Shown one piece after another: positions 2,900 through 63,617 of a stretch of DNA of 64,000 nucleotides (position 1 is the stretch's first letter; the number at the start of each line of letters is the position of its first letter). The stretch covers positions 6,364-70,363 of the forward strand of contig JAFIFH010000071.1 in assembly GCA_020832105.1 (NCBI GenBank), written 5' to 3'. A program made the translations under genes and the position numbers. The stretch is from Idiomarina sp. Its GTDB lineage: Bacteria; Pseudomonadota; Gammaproteobacteria; Enterobacterales; Alteromonadaceae. The notes beneath the pieces are model-generated. The model searched no databases. It had not been told where the DNA came from and was given only the letters and a program-made list of their open reading frames with translations.

Positions 2900-4513
2900 T
2901 CAATTGCAAGTTTTAACGTCATTTGCCTCTTCATAACCACACTCGATGACAACTTCGAAGCCTTCGTCGGGCGCGCTTTGACAGTTAATGCTGCCATCCA
3001 GTGTATGGGTCACCAAATTATAGACCAGGTGCATGCCTAATCCACTGTTGCCTTTGCCTCGTTTGCTGGTCACAAAAGGGTCGAAGATTCTGCGTAAAAT
3101 ATCAGCAGGTACGCCAACGCCGTTGTCTTTGTAGACAAGTTTTAACTGGCCATTGTCAGTGGTGACTGTAATCTCAACCCGACCTGGCGCGTTGGCAGCA
3201 AACCCATGCAATACCGAGTTGTCGAACAGGCTTAATATCAACTGATGCCAGATACCCACCTTCGCCAGAATCGGTTTTTGTAGGGTGCAGCTAATATCCA
3301 CCTCGATCGCCTGACTATGTTCAACATAGGCCCGGGCACTGGTAATAATGTCTTCGAGCATTTGCTTAAAGTCGATGGGGGTGGATTCTTCACCCGCATG
3401 TTCGATAGCAAGTTTCTTGAAGTTATTGATCAATTCAACCGCCCGCCCAAGATTGCGCTGCACAATCGTCAATTGTTGATTGAGCTCCGCATGTAAGTCG
3501 TCAGGCGCTTTTTTGATGGTGTTATCAAGCATTGAGGTAGCGGTTACGGCCATCCCTAAGGGCGTGTTGATTTCATGACTAATGCCAGCGACCAGTTCAG
3601 ATAGCGAGGACATTTTTTGTGCTTCAACTTGCCGCCCCTGATGCTGATGCAGCTGCTCAAGGGTTTCCAGCAGCTCCTGGTTGGCGTTGCGCAAGGCATT
3701 GGTGCGGTCCTGAACCTGTTGTTCAAGTTCTGCGGTGAGCTGCGCGGCTGCCGCTTCTGATTTGGTGTGCTGGTAAGTGAACTGTTGAATCCGGTCAAGC
3801 ACCGTATTGACGTTGCGCCCAAGCATGTCGAGTTCACGAAAAGGTGTATGTTTGAGCCGCAGGCTATAGTTTCGTGTGCGCGCAATATCGCCGATGTCCT
3901 CGATCATTCTATGCAGGTGGCGAGTGAAAAAACGACTCAGCAACTTCGCCATAAGCAGTGCCAAGGCAATGGCGAACAGCACAACGATAAAAGCCAGCAG
4001 GGTGTAATGTTGCAGCGACTGATTCAGTGACTGCCTGGTCGCACGCACAAATACGTAACCACGTGGGGGTTGGTCAGCTGAAAATGCGGATTGTGCCCCC
4101 AGCGACACAGTAAAGGGCACCATAATGTCAATCCCCTGGTGGCTAATTCGGGCCTGCCGCAGGTCGCTGAAAGCCTGTTCGCGAGAAGCAATCGGGGTTA
4201 CGCCAGGGCGGTTATAACTGGTCAGGAAATTCAGTTCACCATCACTGCTGTAGGTATACACGTGTGCGTTCAGAATAAAGTCGGTGTACTCAAACTGTTC
4301 AGCAAAGGACTCGTGCCAGTTGTCCGCATGGTGCGACAGCTGCTGCTTCACGTTCAGGGCGAGTGCATGGGCCTGGTCGCTCACCCGCTCTTCCAGATGC
4401 AGCCGTTGTTGCTGGTAACTGAGCCAGGCATACAGGCTGAAAGCCGAAAGCGAGGCTACGCAGGTGATACAGGCGGTGGTGATAAGAAGGCCTTTGCTGA
4501 GCGTACTTAACAT
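2900..4513 (-). CDS. Membrane sensor histidine kinase (two TM helices, periplasmic domain, HAMP-like linker, HisKA, HATPase; no receiver or Hpt domain)
   Basis: 537 aa. TM helices near residues 10-32 and 170-192. H-box LVAGISHEINTPLGM. ATPase motifs DNGVGVP and GNSGLGMHLV. The start overlaps the rsmC stop by 7 bp. Confidence 0.85.
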   Translation of the reverse strand: MLSTLSKGLLITTACITCVASLSAFSLYAWLSYQQQRLHLEERVSDQAHALALNVKQQLSHHADNWHESFAEQFEYTDFILNAHVYTYSSDGELNFLTSYNRPGVTPIASREQAFSDLRQARISHQGIDIMVPFTVSLGAQSAFSADQPPRGYVFVRATRQSLNQSLQHYTLLAFIVVLFAIALALLMAKLLSRFFTRHLHRMIEDIGDIARTRNYSLRLKHTPFRELDMLGRNVNTVLDRIQQFTYQHTKSEAAAAQLTAELEQQVQDRTNALRNANQELLETLEQLHQHQGRQVEAQKMSSLSELVAGISHEINTPLGMAVTATSMLDNTIKKAPDDLHAELNQQLTIVQRNLGRAVELINNFKKLAIEHAGEESTPIDFKQMLEDIITSARAYVEHSQAIEVDISCTLQKPILAKVGIWHQLILSLFDNSVLHGFAANAPGRVEITVTTDNGQLKLVYKDNGVGVPADILRRIFDPFVTSKRGKGNSGLGMHLVYNLVTHTLDGSINCQSAPDEGFEVVIECGYEEANDVKTCN

Positions 4514-5523
4514 GGTTTGTGCGCCTGGAGGATCTTATAGCGACCATTATTCAAAGGTTCGCTCACTTCCCGAAAGCGCTCTCGCAGTAACGCGTTATAG
4601 CCAAGGAAACTGTTGGCAACGATCAACAGGCGACCACCCGGTTTGAGCTTCTTTGCCACCTCACTGATAAATTTACCGGCTATCTCATAATCCGTGCGTT
4701 GACCAGAATGAAAGGGTGGGTTGGTGATAATCCAGTCGAAGCGCCCGGTGACTGCATCAAGACCATCACTGGCAAGTACTTCAAAGGGGCTGTCCAGTTG
4801 CTGCGTGTGTAAGGTTTGCTCAGTGGTGGCTAACGCGAAGGCACTGACATCACTGGCAACGATGGCGTCAATCGAACAGTGGGCACGAACGAAAGCGCTG
4901 ATAGCGCCACTGCCACAGGCGAAGTCGAGTACGCGGCCATGGATTTTCGGCTGAGCGCCTATGTACTCGAGTAGCAGAGCCGTGCCGGCGTCTAAGCGTT
5001 GCTCGCTGAACACCCCCGGTAAATTAAAAACCGTGGTGGCCGGTTCGCCCGGCAGCTGATAGGTGGTCTGGTAATCGTCGAGCTTAAATGGCGCAACCTG
5101 GGTGGCGTTGCGTTGACAGACATAGAGTAGGCAGTGATTGCCACTGGCTACTTTTTGCGCGGGACTAAAGCTTGCCGGTAGCTGTTTTACAATTGACTTG
5201 ATACCCCCTTTATTCGGGCCAACCAGGTAGAGGGTGGCGTCCTCGGGCATCATCGCGGCGAGATTATCGAATAACATCCGGCACAGGCTTTTTTCTTTAG
5301 GTACATACAGCACGGCTTGATCAACGCTGGTTTGGAAAAGCTGTGGATCCAGCTCTGCGGCAAAGCTATCGTTGTCAGCAGCGAAATGGTGATACAGGTT
5401 GGCGTAATAAAAGTGCGCCCGACAAGATTGCTGGCGGCTAAGAGAGTCTTGTGCATTGACCAACAGGGTTGCGGGTGTCACCACCTCATGGCGGAGTAAT
5501 AACTGGCTGGGGTTATCCAACAT
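4507..5523 (-). CDS. rsmC: 16S rRNA (guanine1207-N2)-methyltransferase RsmC
   Basis: 338 aa with a duplicated methyltransferase fold. VLDFACGSGAIS and ITNPPFHSG motifs. Colinear with E. coli RsmC. Confidence 0.85.
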   Translation of the reverse strand: MLDNPSQLLLRHEVVTPATLLVNAQDSLSRQQSCRAHFYYANLYHHFAADNDSFAAELDPQLFQTSVDQAVLYVPKEKSLCRMLFDNLAAMMPEDATLYLVGPNKGGIKSIVKQLPASFSPAQKVASGNHCLLYVCQRNATQVAPFKLDDYQTTYQLPGEPATTVFNLPGVFSEQRLDAGTALLLEYIGAQPKIHGRVLDFACGSGAISAFVRAHCSIDAIVASDVSAFALATTEQTLHTQQLDSPFEVLASDGLDAVTGRFDWIITNPPFHSGQRTDYEIAGKFISEVAKKLKPGGRLLIVANSFLGYNALLRERFREVSEPLNNGRYKILQAHKPC

Positions 5524-7186
5524 ATTGGTAACTGAAGCTCCCGTTTTTCAGGATTAAGGTTGAGGGGCCGCGATTCTCATCAATGCGTTTGCTTTCATAT
5601 TCCCCTTGTAAAACAACCCCGGAGTATAACACGCGGTTGGCATGGACAATGATCATCTGGCGCTCCGGAGCGCGCTTTTGTAATTCTTTGAACTGGATTT
5701 TTAGCACCGTAATATTGCGTCGATGATTTTCCAGTTTTTGCTCCAGGGGCTGCAGAAACTTCTTCAATTTAGCGCTGGGCATGTCTTCTTCACGTGCCCG
5801 CTGACGCGCTTTGCTCAGCTTTTTCACCATCGCCATTTCGTCACGCAGCCCCTTGCTTAAGCGTTCGGTATCAGCAAGGTAGGACTCGTCGGCGGTGGGG
5901 GATGCGATATTAATATAGGTTTTAGTGCCAGCAGGGGCACCAATTTGACCAGCATAGACATGGGTGGTGGTGTCGATGACACCGCCAATGAGTTTACCTC
6001 GCGCCTCTTTGCCCTCACCGCCAAGGCACAGAGTACCCTGGGTGATGACATGGCAATGGGTTAACTGCTTGTCGACAATAACGCCTTTGTTGGCCTTTAA
6101 TGTGGCGTACTGACTATAGGAAACCCAAAGCGAACCGCCAGCAGTCACCCGGGTGGAATGCTCTACGCTGGGGGCGGGAACGGCGTCATCGTCATCAACC
6201 TGTTCCGATTGTTGGCCGATAACGCCCTTGGTAATCGTGATATTGCCAGCCGCTTCAATGACTGCGGAGTCGACATAGCCAGTCACCGTCACATCACCGC
6301 CTGCGGTCACTTTCATCCCAGGGCCGACATTACCGTTAATCAGCACCGAGCCCTCGTAATTGACATGCCCGGTAGTAGCATCGACTTTGCGCATGGTCAG
6401 TACATCGTCAATATGGGCAGCATTATCGAGAATACGCGGTAAACCCTGATTGGCCGCAATTAGCAGATTAGCATCCTCAGGGCTGACCACTGCGCCATTG
6501 CCAGCGTGAAGATCGCGATTTTTACCGGGGGTTGCCTCAAGGGCCAATCCCTTGACGGTAAACCCAGGGTTGCCTTGGGTTGGAGGCACTCGGCGCAATA
6601 GCTTGGTGCCTGGCTGGACACTGATGACCTCGCCCAGATCACGCATATCTACCTTTTCATTTTCATTCTTGACCTGGGGCCTGAGAACGCGCTCTCGGGC
6701 ATCCTGAGTCAGTGGCTCAAACCGTGCATCATCGCCATCGATGGCTGGCCGACCCCGGGCAATCAGTACTTCCAATTCGCTACCAGGTTCACCATGCAGG
6801 CTATGGTCAATGACTTTCTCCATGGCCTGGCGGCGTATACCCATGGTCACCCCGGATTCCCGCAACATTTTAAGTAATTGGTTGAGGGACAGGGGGGTAC
6901 CGCCAAAAGGTGCGGTGCTAACGGCATGGACCTGCATGTCATCTTCACTGACTTCCAGGCGAATCGTCGCCGGCAGACATTGGCCGATGCGAATCAGTGA
7001 GGTGTCTTCAGTGGCAACCGCGCTCAGTGCATTGCTAAAGGCATTGTCATCCAGTAAACAAGCGGCGGAGCCAGAATGTTCAAAAACTTGCTGTAAGGTC
7101 TTCTCGTCGAGATCGGCCCGTTCTACCCTATTGCCAATCGACAGGTAGAGCGTTTCACCAGTTTGCACAAAATCGATTCCGTTCAT
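5513..7186 (-). CDS. FapA-family (DUF342) protein
   Basis: 557 aa. Central beta-helix-like repeats (GNVGPGMKVTAGGDVTVTGYVDSAVIEAAGNITITKGVIG) and a C-terminal coiled coil, typical of DUF342/FapA. Overlaps both neighbouring genes. Confidence 0.8.
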   Translation of the reverse strand: MNGIDFVQTGETLYLSIGNRVERADLDEKTLQQVFEHSGSAACLLDDNAFSNALSAVATEDTSLIRIGQCLPATIRLEVSEDDMQVHAVSTAPFGGTPLSLNQLLKMLRESGVTMGIRRQAMEKVIDHSLHGEPGSELEVLIARGRPAIDGDDARFEPLTQDARERVLRPQVKNENEKVDMRDLGEVISVQPGTKLLRRVPPTQGNPGFTVKGLALEATPGKNRDLHAGNGAVVSPEDANLLIAANQGLPRILDNAAHIDDVLTMRKVDATTGHVNYEGSVLINGNVGPGMKVTAGGDVTVTGYVDSAVIEAAGNITITKGVIGQQSEQVDDDDAVPAPSVEHSTRVTAGGSLWVSYSQYATLKANKGVIVDKQLTHCHVITQGTLCLGGEGKEARGKLIGGVIDTTTHVYAGQIGAPAGTKTYINIASPTADESYLADTERLSKGLRDEMAMVKKLSKARQRAREEDMPSAKLKKFLQPLEQKLENHRRNITVLKIQFKELQKRAPERQMIIVHANRVLYSGVVLQGEYESKRIDENRGPSTLILKNGSFSYQYVG

Positions 7187-32076: not shown

Positions 32077-33266
32077 GCCTGCCGAACATAAAAAGCCCTG
32101 TGTACCTGGATTATGCAGCGACAACCCCGATGGACCCGAAAGTCGCGGAAAAAATGATGCGCTTTATGACCATGGACGGGGTGTTTGGTAATCCGGCGTC
32201 GCGCTCTCACCGTTATGGTTGGCAAGCGGAAGAGGCGGTAGACGAAGCGCGCGGTCAGATAGCGGATTTAATTCATGCGGACCCGCGGGAAATTGTATTT
32301 ACCAGTGGCGCGACCGAATCCGATAACCTGGCGATTAAAGGGGTGGCTGAACAGGCGCAGAAGCAGGCCGATGGCAATCCCAACCGTAACCAGATTATCA
32401 CGCTCAAAACCGAACATAAGGCCGTGCTGGATACCTGTCATGACCTCGAACAGCGTGGCTTCGTGGTGCACTACCTCGATGTAGACAGTCAGGGGCGTCT
32501 GGATCTGGACATCCTGCGCCAGGCCATCAACGAATACACATTGCTGGTCAGCGTGATGCATGTCAACAATGAGACCGGTGTGGTTCAGGACATCGCCGAG
32601 ATCGCCCGCTTGTGCCATGCCAAAGATGTTTTATTACATGTGGATGCCGCGCAAAGTGTAGGCAAAATTCGGGTGGATGTACGTAATCTTGATGTTGATC
32701 TGCTATCCATCTCGGCCCATAAAATGTATGGGCCCAAGGGCATAGGTGCGCTATTTGTAAGGCGCCAGCCAAAGGTTCGTCTGCATGCACAAATCCATGG
32801 TGGGGGACACGAGCGTGGCATGCGTTCAGGCACCCTTGCGACCCATCAAATCGTTGGCTTTGGCGAGGCCGCGCGGTTGGCTGATAAATTACTGAGTGAA
32901 GAAAGCATGCATCTGCATGGACTTCGCGAGCGCCTGTTGACCGGCTTTAAAGCCCTTGGGGGCGTGACCCTCAATGGTCACCCTGAGCAATGCGCACCGG
33001 GTATTCTCAATGTGTCTTTTGCCGATGTAGATGGTGAAATGTTATTGATGAGTTTAAAGGACCTGGCGGTATCCACAGGGTCGGCGTGTAACTCAGCCAG
33101 TGTCGAACCTTCATTTGTGCTCAGTGCGATGGGACTTAGCCGAGAGCAGGCCCATGCGTCGGTGCGCTTTAGTGTCGGCCGGTTCACTCAGGAGCAGGAC
33201 ATCGACACCTGTCTGGCCATCGTCAAAGACACCCTTGAGCGTTTGCGGGCGAACCCAATCTGGTAA
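32073..33266 (+). CDS. iscS: Cysteine desulfurase IscS (short C-terminus)
   Basis: 397 aa. Colinear with E. coli IscS: [50 protein letters not shown] (PLP Lys), SSGSAC-type loop [10 protein letters not shown]. Ends at LRANPIW. ATGA overlap with trmJ. Confidence 0.85.
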
Positions 33267-61711: not shown

Positions 61712-63115
61712 ATGCTGACAGAAGGTAGCTGGCTCAGCCTGCTGCCTTCGCTGCTGGCCATTCTCTTCGCCATCCTCACCCGGCGCGTCATTCTGGCGTT
61801 ACTTGGTGGGGTGCTTCTGGCTAATGCACTCTTTTACGCCCCCGACATGCTCAGCGCCGCGCTGGGCAGTGTGGTGTCATTGAGCAGTGCGCTGGTTGAC
61901 CCGGGTAATATGCAAATCTGGGGGTTTACCCTGATTATCGGTGCGTTGTTTGGCGTGCTGGAAGGAGGGGGCACCTTTCGCCATTTTGTCGCTGCGTTAG
62001 AAAAGCGTCAGCTTGGCAACTCACCGCGCAAAGCCCGTATGTTCACCTGGCTGCTTGGGGTCGCGGTGTTTATCGAATCCAATGTGTCAATCATGACCTC
62101 GGGCACCACCGCACGGCCGCTGTATGACCGCCTGGGGATGTCACGGGAAAAGCTCGCCTATATTATCGACTCAACCTGTGCGCCCATTTGTATCCTGATC
62201 CCATTGAATGCCTGGGGTGCTTTCAACTTAGGTTTGATCAGCGCCCAGGATATCGCCAATCCGTTACTGACCTTTGCAGAGTCACTGCTGTATAACTTCT
62301 ATGCGATTCTGGCTATTTTGCTGGCGCTATGGGTTGCCTGGAGCGGCTGGTCGATTGGCCCTATGCGGCAGGCAGACGCCGCGGCGAAAGCACGGCTGGC
62401 TAATCAGCCAGTGGCCAACGACACCCCTGCGCAAGCATCGCCTCAGTTGGCGTATCAGCAAAGTGCTGCGGTGACAGTGTTAGTGAGCCTGATCAGTATG
62501 GTGGTGATGGTGCCCCTGATGTTATTCATTACCGGTGGCGGTAGCATTGTCCAGGGTGCGGGCACCACCAGCGTGCTGGTGGCGGTGACCACTGCCTTTG
62601 TCATCGCCCTGGTGGGGTCACGGGTAACCCTGGCAAGCCCCTGGGCGACACTGGCTAAACATGCATTGCGTGGGGCCCGGGCAATTCTACCGCTCGCTAT
62701 TATTCTGTGGTTGGCGATGGTGCTTGGCGATATGACCCGGGCACTAGGGACCGCGGACTTTATTACCGGCCTGATTGATGACAGTTTCCCGGTATGGCTG
62801 CTGTTACCCATTGTGTTTGTGCTGGCGGCGCTCACCGCATTTGCAATAGGGTCGAGCTGGGGCACCTTTGCGATCATGCTGCCCTTGGCAATTCCGCTGG
62901 CGCTGAACCTTGGCCTGCCGCCAGCGCCTTTTATTGCGGCAGCGATTTCTGGCGGTATCTTTGGTGACCACGCATCACCTATTAGTGACACCACGATTAT
63001 TGCGTCTCTTGCGGCGGGTACGGAACACATTGACCATGTGCGCACCCAGTTGCCATATGCGCTGCTTGCGGCGACAGGTACGGTTGTCCTGTATGCGCTT
63101 TGGGGTCTGTTGTAA
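61712..63115 (+). CDS. NhaC-family Na+/H+ antiporter-like membrane transporter
   Basis: 467 aa, polytopic. N-terminal SLLPSLLAILFAILTRRV and overall organisation resemble the NhaC family. Confidence 0.7.
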   Translation: MLTEGSWLSLLPSLLAILFAILTRRVILALLGGVLLANALFYAPDMLSAALGSVVSLSSALVDPGNMQIWGFTLIIGALFGVLEGGGTFRHFVAALEKRQLGNSPRKARMFTWLLGVAVFIESNVSIMTSGTTARPLYDRLGMSREKLAYIIDSTCAPICILIPLNAWGAFNLGLISAQDIANPLLTFAESLLYNFYAILAILLALWVAWSGWSIGPMRQADAAAKARLANQPVANDTPAQASPQLAYQQSAAVTVLVSLISMVVMVPLMLFITGGGSIVQGAGTTSVLVAVTTAFVIALVGSRVTLASPWATLAKHALRGARAILPLAIILWLAMVLGDMTRALGTADFITGLIDDSFPVWLLLPIVFVLAALTAFAIGSSWGTFAIMLPLAIPLALNLGLPPAPFIAAAISGGIFGDHASPISDTTIIASLAAGTEHIDHVRTQLPYALLAATGTVVLYALWGLL

Positions 63116-63195: not shown

Positions 63196-63225
63196 ATAAA
63201 ACAACGCCAATTGACGTTGTTTTAT
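63196..63225 (+). terminator. AT-rich hairpin terminator after the antiporter gene
   Basis: ATAAAACAACG-CCAATTGA-CGTTGTTTTAT. Confidence 0.55.
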
Positions 63226-63299
63226 GACGACCCACCTGATAGCTTAAATTTACAAATCGTTAAGTAATTGATTTTTATGACTTTATTTTAATTAAAAAC

Positions 63300-63316
63300 C
63301 TGGCCTGATTGTTGCT
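63300..63316 (+). promoter_or_regulatory. Sigma54-like -24/-12 element CTGGCCTGATTGTTGCT
   Basis: Matches YTGGCACGrNNNTTGCW at all positions except 2 of the -24 hexamer, with exact GG-N10-GC spacing. Predicted +1 near 63326-63328. An alternative sigma70 -10 is TAAGAT at 63322-63327. Confidence 0.4.
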
Positions 63317-63326
63317 ATCCATAAGA

Positions 63327-63508
63327 TACACCTTGGATGTTTTACAAGGACGTATTTCAAAGGGACAGGCTTGAAGGAATAAGCAAAAGGAAAGGGCGCA
63401 GGATGCCAACAGGGAGACGAACTCAGGGAGAGTTCAGGCTGAAGGATCAGCATTAGGGAAGCGCAGGGAAAGATAAGGGACCAGCCCGCAGGAAGCGGGC
63501 TTTTTTTA
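63327..63508 (+). ncRNA. Csr/Rsm-family (CsrB/RsmY/RsmZ-like) CsrA-sequestering sRNA candidate
   Basis: 13 GGA motifs in about 175 nt with no ORF. GGA sits in hairpin loops at 63395-63407 (GGC-GCAGGAT-GCC), 63421-63433 (ACTC-AGGGA-GAGT) and 63438-63451 (GCTGA-AGGA-TCAGC). Terminator AGCCCGC-AGGAA-GCGGGCT plus T7 at 63483-63507, with GGA in its loop. Confidence 0.7.
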
Positions 63509-63617
63509 TTTCAGAAACTAAAACCATTATACTATCGCCAGAATGCCTGCCACCCCGGCTGGGCTATTTGCAAACGAGAACCTCGCAAATGGGAACGCGC
63601 TAGTGTCCGATACCGAT

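Follow-up and report, generated by a model that had tools for sequence, protein, structure and literature searches.

The stretch of DNA analysed here (64 kb, referred to below as the window) carries guaB and guaA upstream of a gene for a Na+/H+ antiporter family protein (61712-63115; a match to PF03553 at E = 1e-46), and this in turn is followed by tadA, the gene for a TadA-like deaminase. The tadA frame is open from 63543, its homology to relatives starts near residue 21, and 63543 and 63618 are the candidate start codons; depending on which of these is used, the gap between the antiporter stop (63115) and tadA measures 427-502 bp. Within this gap, on the same strand as tadA, lies a predicted small RNA (sRNA) gene of ~172-179 nt (63330-63508, + strand), which stands out as a block conserved in four Aliidiomarina species and is matched both by a covariance model built from these species (R1) and, in a relaxed search, by the Rfam model for CsrB. 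As set out below, the evidence supports the view that this element is a real and previously undescribed member of the Csr/Rsm class of sponge RNAs, and one that Rfam misses. CsrA regulates gene expression globally at the post-transcriptional level, and it is through its sponge RNAs that the whole circuit is controlled. An earlier reading of the same DNA (the original prediction) had named the two neighbouring genes and had found no open reading frame (ORF) of 60 aa or more between them; both points hold, as the two longest ORFs on the - strand of the gap measure 53 and 44 aa, and none on the + strand exceeds 39 aa. No tRNA or tmRNA genes were found anywhere in the 64-kb window.

The element contains an array of 13 GGA motifs (63335-63493, + strand), which start at 63335, 63348, 63363, 63376, 63389, 63401, 63413, 63427, 63444, 63457, 63467, 63478 and 63491. 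Six of these are found as AGGA and six as AGGGA, so that 12/13 conform to A(R)GGA, and the earlier count of 13 GGAs, mostly A(N)GGA, in about 175 nt is borne out. The - strand of 63327-63508 contains no GGA at all. Across both strands of the window, 182-nt stretches carry a mean of 1.55 GGA (sd 1.32) with a maximum elsewhere of 8, making the array the densest GGA stretch of this length on either strand, in a window where GGA is under-represented overall (1091 observed vs ~1590 expected). Since the element is itself purine-rich (A 33%, G 34%, C 17%, T 17%; A+G 67%), the count was also compared with shuffled sequences. Mononucleotide shuffles contain a mean of 6.5 GGA, with 30 of 20000 reaching 13, and dinucleotide shuffles a mean of 8.05, with 32 of 5000 reaching 13; the GGA excess holds after correcting for the purine-rich local composition. 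More striking than the number of motifs is their spacing, which is almost periodic. Successive GGAs are separated by 13, 15, 13, 13, 12, 12, 14, 17, 13, 10, 11 and 13 nt (13.0±1.7 nt), giving a coefficient of variation (CV) of 0.13 compared with 0.72 for random placement, and none of ~20000 random placements was equally regular. Tandem Repeats Finder called no array in 63200-63560, so the regularly spaced motifs did not arise as recent tandem copies of a single unit.

The second-densest GGA stretch of the window (8 in 182 nt; 32107-32290, + strand) lies inside the coding sequence of a class-V aminotransferase (cysteine-desulfurase-like), and appears to be a chance feature of ordinary coding DNA.

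Folding of the predicted RNA (minimum free energy -49.4 kcal/mol; z = -3.3 vs shuffles) places many of these motifs in the loops of short hairpins. The original prediction had drawn four hairpins with GGA in the loop, all of which exist, and two further ones were found, making six in all, including the terminator. Read from left to right on the + strand, the two additional hairpins come first, TAC-AAGGAC-GTA at 63343-63354 and GCTTG-AAGGAA-TAAGC at 63369-63384; these are followed by GGCG-CAGGA-TGCC at 63395-63407 (previously drawn as GGC-GCAGGAT-GCC), GAACTC-AGGGA-GAGTTC at 63419-63435 and GCTGA-AGGA-TCAGC at 63438-63451. The array is closed by an intrinsic terminator (AGCCCGC-AGGAA-GCGGGCT followed by T7; 63483-63508), in which the last GGA sits in the 5-nt loop AGGAA. 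This terminator operates on the + strand only, and its description as a strong one, with a 7-bp GC stem and T7, was accurate: six of its 7 pairs are G-C. The 3' end of the sRNA is placed in the T-run (63502-63508). The GGAs in loops alternate with GGAs in unpaired linkers, and partition-function folds of the four species' sequences give GGA bases a mean unpaired probability of 0.67-0.74, compared with 0.35-0.40 for other bases and 0.17-0.33 for other G residues. Whether the GGAs are enriched in loops was a check that the original prediction had proposed, and in all four species they are indeed preferentially unpaired.

The antiporter protein is 82% identical to its homologues in A. soli, A. 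sedimenti and A. maris, and 61-63% identical to those of other Aliidiomarina/Idiomarina genomes; on these identities the window is assigned to an Aliidiomarina (Idiomarinaceae, Gammaproteobacteria). The window was compared with the corresponding loci of the three close relatives, 8-9 kb each. In all three, the densest GGA stretch of the locus lies ~200 nt past the antiporter gene, on the same strand, and carries 13-14 GGAs. The alignment reveals the GGA triplets and the terminator as invariant islands (the terminator stem, 63483-63501, is identical in 4/4 species), with the bases between GGAs varying freely and the intergenic flanks barely alignable. GGA offsets are near-identical across species (12, 26, 39, 51-53, 65-66, 77-78, 89-90, 103-104, 120-122, 134-136 and so on). 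In addition, A. soli and A. sedimenti alone share a 14-nt insertion, CTAAGGGACGCGCA, that carries a 14th GGA (L001 ~4608-4621 and L002 ~5733-5746, at these two loci respectively; columns 147-160 of alignment A2), which suggests that the array may grow and shrink by whole GGA units.

The hairpins are preserved in a similar fashion. RNAalifold predicts 36 pairs, of which 12 have changed on both sides with the pair kept and several are G·U, and the five GGA-loop hairpins retain their stems via compensatory substitutions. The first (63343-63354) takes the form GCTTAC-AGGGAC-GTAAGT in A. soli, and its alignment pair 21-32 (A2) changes from UA to CG in A. maris. The stems of the second (63369-63384) read GCTTG/TAAGC in the window, GCGTT/GACGC in A. 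soli and GCCTC/GAGGC in A. maris, again with compensatory changes. The third (63395-63407) becomes GGGC-TGGAT-GCCC in A. soli and is weak or unclear in A. maris. Three pairs have changed on both sides in the fourth (63419-63435), where GAACTC/GAGTTC in the window corresponds to CTAC/GTAG in A. soli and GAGCTC/GAGCTC in A. maris; and in the fifth (63438-63451) the stems are kept as GCTGA/TCAGC, CGCCAA/TTGGTG and GCGA/TCGC, in the same order of species. In the second, fourth and fifth hairpins the GGA sits in a 4-6-nt loop. The alignment also contains indels of 1, 2, 4 and 14 nt, and the longest ATG-initiated ORF on the + strand reaches 22 aa in A. soli, compared with 10 aa in A. maris; with non-triplet indels and a 39-aa ORF that is not conserved, coding is therefore excluded. 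Comparison of the orthologous regions, likewise proposed at the outset, thus finds the GGA register, the hairpins and the terminator kept in three relatives whose flanks have diverged, and these patterns identify the element, as far as sequence can, as a gene for a non-coding RNA in which selection keeps the GGAs exposed.

The opposite orientation was also considered. That the - strand folds well (z = -4.6) is no surprise where hairpins are symmetric; it has no terminator and no GGA, and the G·U pairs would be A·C on it. The one-sided terminator, together with the G·U pairs, therefore fixes the + strand as the RNA strand.

At Rfam gathering level, a scan of the whole window gave no matches to any of 4227 families, and accordingly none to members of clan CL00106 (CsrC [RF00084], RsmY, PrrB_RsmZ, RsmX and others). 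When the scan was relaxed, CsrB/RsmB was the sole meaningful match (63296-63510; 23.3 bits, E = 1.4e-4), covering the model from one end to the other but with large deletions, and three overlapping, lower-scoring matches from the same clan were dropped in its favour. For the copies in A. soli and A. sedimenti the same model is again the best Rfam match, with 28.6 and 29.7 bits. For the reverse comparison, the covariance model R1, built from the four Aliidiomarina sequences, was run over 146 kb of sequence, comprising the window, 11 Idiomarinaceae loci and the csrB and csrC loci of E. coli. R1 matches the window at 63323-63512 with 186 bits, and outside its four source sequences it finds E. coli csrB (24.3 bits, E ~2e-6) and csrC (22.1 bits, E ~8e-6), with nothing else above 7 bits. 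The similarity of the element to CsrB/CsrC is thus reciprocal and sub-threshold, in keeping with the earlier remark that the primary sequence matched no recognisable family member and that the RNA might be a divergent one. All the computational checks that the original prediction had suggested turned out in its favour.

A further yardstick is provided by Kulkarni et al. 2006 (PMC1488887; CSRNA_FIND), who predicted CsrA-regulating sRNAs by GGA density and set out five sequence criteria. With respect to the first four of these, (i) the element is intergenic and non-coding, lying in a 427-502 bp gap with no conserved ORF; (ii) it has a high density of AGGA/ARGGA (12/13 GGAs in ~160 nt); (iii) it ends in a rho-independent terminator; and (iv) its GGAs are found repeatedly in loops and unpaired regions. 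The fifth concerns a conserved upstream site of csrB, csrC or rsmY type, for which a scan with the Pseudomonas-type consensus gave 9/12 in the window and at most 7/12 in the relatives. As that scan brought out no conserved site, the element sits with the lower-confidence predictions of the 'Table 2' type in PMC1488887, a paper whose main text does not include Idiomarinaceae. Searches of the literature on Idiomarina or Aliidiomarina with CsrB or CsrA turned up no description of the element or of any Csr/Rsm sRNA in Idiomarinaceae.

Upstream of the array, a weak candidate promoter of sigma-70 type can be proposed at 63300-63327 (+ strand), with CTGGCC as the -35 element (63300-63305), a 16-nt spacer and TAAGAT as the -10 element (63322-63327); the -35 equivalents are TTGGCC in A. 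maris and TCGACT in A. soli (alignment A1), and a simple consensus promoter scan did not call this site. Taking the -10 element as a guide, the 5' end of the sRNA would lie at approximately 63333-63336. A perfect match to the IHF consensus, AATCAATTACTTA (WATCAANNNNTTR), is found on the - strand at 63261-63273, ~65-67 nt upstream of this putative start. The 64-kb window contains 2 such matches vs 2.2 expected by chance, and the sole IHF match of the A. maris locus (L003 5514-5526, - strand) is oriented alike and lies equally far from the sRNA. In A. soli and A. sedimenti, no IHF consensus precedes the sRNA. A doubtful, weak GacA/UvrY-box-like sequence, TGATAGCTTAAATTTACA, lies at 63237-63254 (+ strand) and agrees with TGTAAGN6CTTACA at 9/12 specified bases, a level of agreement reached 10 times in the window vs 19 expected by chance.

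The copies of A. soli and A. sedimenti are preceded, ~100 nt before the first GGA, by a perfect 18-bp palindrome, CAGTTTTTTGAAAAACTG (L001 ~4370-4387, L002 ~5494-5511). Standing in place of the IHF-like site, it could be the site of another regulator or a terminator-like hairpin.

The antiporter gene appears to have a transcription end of its own. An A/T-rich 11-bp hairpin, ATAAAACAACG-CCAATTGA-CGTTGTTTTAT, read from the sequence at 63196-63225 (+ strand), lies 80 nt past the antiporter stop; it was seen as a perfect helix within a chance Rfam alignment, and the relatives have different hairpins at the equivalent position. This hairpin likely ends the guaBA-antiporter transcription unit, in which case the sRNA would be transcribed as a unit of its own.

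Taken together, these features are best explained by a free-standing ~175-nt sRNA whose 13 exposed A(R)GGA sites would sequester up to ~six CsrA dimers and so relieve CsrA control, a reading that we consider likely and hold with good confidence. Under this reading, the element would be an independent gene, read from left to right from its weak promoter, probably with the assistance of an activator and of IHF, and transcription would stop at the GC-rich terminator (63483-63508). The RNA would then present its 13 A(R)GGA motifs at intervals of ~13 nt, with roughly half of them in hairpin loops and the others in the single-stranded linkers. The recognition element of CsrA, as defined by work on CsrA and RsmE, is A(R)GGA, often in a hairpin loop. 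A dimer of CsrA/RsmA binds two GGA sites, and one RNA could therefore hold up to ~six dimers. By this means CsrA would be drawn off the ribosome-binding regions of its target mRNAs, relieving the control that it exerts there. Titration of CsrA is the mechanism of CsrB/CsrC and of RsmX/Y/Z.

Several observations weigh against this assignment. The first concerns classification: with 23-30 bits, the element and its relatives miss the gathering score of RF00018 (71 bits) widely, and fall outside the family as curated. The second is the partner protein, as tblastn with E. coli CsrA found no csrA in the fetched loci or anywhere in the 64-kb window, and a tblastn search of the same sequences for UvrY returned only a generic response regulator (26% identity). 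Third, no conserved UvrY/GacA box was found, the three relatives reaching at most 7/12 with a consensus that is of Pseudomonas type and from which the Idiomarinaceae motif may differ. In addition, A. soli and A. sedimenti are near-identical, so the comparison covers three independent lineages only and the covariation statistics are thin. The more distant genomes discussed below have no GGA cluster at the same junction. Finally, that the element is transcribed, where precisely its 5' end lies, how many CsrA dimers it binds and what inputs regulate it are all inferred from sequence. With regard to the partner proteins, the KEGG table in PMC7366521 lists, for three Idiomarina genomes, 1-2 CsrA, one UvrY/GacA, one BarA/GacS, LadS and Hfq; Idiomarina is the sister genus of Aliidiomarina, and it is reasonable to expect from the family that the source genome of the window possesses csrA as well.

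The distribution of the element bears on how it arose. More distant Aliidiomarina/Idiomarina genomes and metagenome contigs (L004-L007 and L017-L020) keep the guaA-antiporter-tadA synteny, and in these tadA follows ~5-110 nt past the antiporter gene with no GGA cluster at the junction; R1 likewise finds no match at the more distant Idiomarinaceae loci. When metagenomes were scanned for the invariant block of the terminator (GGACCAGCCCGCA..GGANGCGGGCTTTT), there were no matches; scanned with the antiporter protein, they yielded only relatives with 60-63% identity, none of which has the element. At the antiporter-tadA junction, and with respect to that locus, the sRNA gene therefore has the appearance of an insertion specific to one subclade. 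The sequence features may fit either a diverged Csr/Rsm homologue or a convergent solution. A more elaborate account can be built on the second of these, in which a CsrA sponge was born or inserted independently in one Aliidiomarina subclade at an otherwise tight antiporter-tadA junction, without descent from CsrB, CsrC or RsmY/Z, and grew through the gain or loss of ~13-nt GGA units, as hinted at by the 14-nt unit confined to A. soli and A. sedimenti, into a strictly phased hairpin/linker array that nucleates an ordered, cooperative chain of ~six CsrA dimers, with a regulatory input other than the canonical GacA box and with help from IHF in some species. We regard this account as possible and put it forward tentatively.

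It is also conceivable that the element is a real sRNA that acts through a different partner, such as Hfq (via ARN motifs and the U-tail), another RNA-binding protein, or base-pairing, for example to UCC-rich sequences. The purine richness of the RNA (A+G 67%), its A-rich linkers such as CAAAAGGAAAGGG and its U7 tail would suit such a role, the strict 13-nt phasing is atypical of E. coli CsrB/CsrC (CV 0.43-0.49), and no GacA box was found. However, what is conserved here is specifically GGA, mostly as A(R)GGA and often in 4-6-nt loops, which is the CsrA recognition element, and the sole similarity of the RNA to any described family, in both directions, is to CsrB/CsrC. For these reasons a different partner seems to us rather unlikely.

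A role in cis was likewise considered, in which the element would be a 5' leader or attenuator of tadA, with transcription either terminating at 63483-63508 or reading through into tadA. The position of tadA, next on the same strand with its candidate starts 35-110 nt past the T-run, is what recommends this idea. Yet more distant Aliidiomarina/Idiomarina genomes have tadA directly after the antiporter gene without the element, the terminator is strong and invariant, and no alternative antiterminator pairing is evident. Furthermore, a TATACT hexamer (63528-63533, + strand) just downstream of the terminator is kept in all four species and is probably the -10 element of a promoter for tadA, the -35 region of which would coincide in part with the T-tail of the sRNA, an arrangement that would give tadA a promoter of its own. 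A tadA leader is, in light of this, very unlikely.

That the block might be a non-functional purine-rich intergenic remnant, or an element acting at the DNA level, with a GGA excess due to chance, is hardly credible: purine richness alone predicts 6.5-8 GGAs, but only 0.15-0.6% of composition-matched shuffles reach 13, not one of the ~20000 placements is as regular, the GGA register is kept where the flanks are unalignable, and there are compensatory stem changes, including + strand-specific G·U pairs, as well as a terminator. Lastly, a 39-aa peptide could be read from the ATG-initiated ORF at 63337-63456 (+ strand), but, as noted above, this ORF is not conserved and the alignment contains non-triplet indels, and the idea is effectively refuted.

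If the element is the CsrA sponge that we propose, it would be of interest in several respects. Sponge RNAs evolve fast, and homology tools therefore miss them outside well-studied orders; Rfam, used at its own thresholds, misses the present element and so provides an instance of this. A sponge gene would also give a handle on Csr regulation in Idiomarinaceae, a family of halophilic and alkaliphilic marine bacteria. With its regular 13-nt phasing and the highest GGA density among the RNAs compared here, it could be useful for relating site spacing to cooperative CsrA loading. In addition, its presence or absence at a conserved syntenic junction, together with the gain or loss of a 14-nt unit among sister species, bears on the birth and growth of sponge RNAs. 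The understanding of the mechanism is left unchanged by these findings, and a sponge RNA in a gammaproteobacterium with CsrA would not surprise a specialist.

Two groups of described sponge RNAs invite comparison. Like RsmZ, RsmY and RsmX of Pseudomonas, the element is a compact RNA in the 110-180 nt range, with GGAs that alternate between stem-loops and linkers and a terminator loop that carries a GGA. The same arrangement is reported for the RsmZ-RsmE complex (Duss et al. 2014), in which dimers reportedly clamp neighbouring sites. The element differs from these RNAs in number of motifs, since RsmX/Y/Z carry 5-8 GGAs vs 13-14 in the element and its copies in the relatives, and in the upstream activating sequence TGTAAGN6CTTACA, which is typical of rsmX/Y/Z and is not conserved at the element.

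Compared with CsrB and CsrC of E. coli, the element is shorter (~175 nt vs 369 nt for CsrB and 246 nt for CsrC) and denser in GGA (one per 13.7 nt vs 16.8 and 17.6 nt, respectively), and its motifs are far more regularly spaced (CV 0.13 vs 0.43 and 0.49). The genomic neighbours also differ, being guaA, the antiporter gene and tadA in one case and syd or yihA in the other, and no conserved UvrY box was found for the element, unlike CsrB/CsrC. In other respects the resemblance is close. CsrB and CsrC, like the element, are encoded by stand-alone intergenic sRNA genes with an intrinsic terminator. In E. coli and Salmonella the expression of csrB requires IHF, and the IHF-type site upstream of the element in the window can be likened to this arrangement. 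Base composition is almost the same throughout, with A/G/C/T fractions of.33/.34/.17/.17 in the element,.30/.33/.18/.18 in CsrB and.33/.31/.17/.19 in CsrC, and the unpaired probability of GGA bases in the element (0.72) lies between those of CsrB (0.80) and CsrC (0.61). Many A(R)GGA motifs, predicted to be unpaired and often presented in hairpin loops, are common to all three RNAs. In composition, GGA density and loop exposure, then, the element closely matches E. coli CsrB/CsrC, which supports the architecture of CsrB/CsrC/RsmY/RsmZ type that the original prediction had attributed to it.

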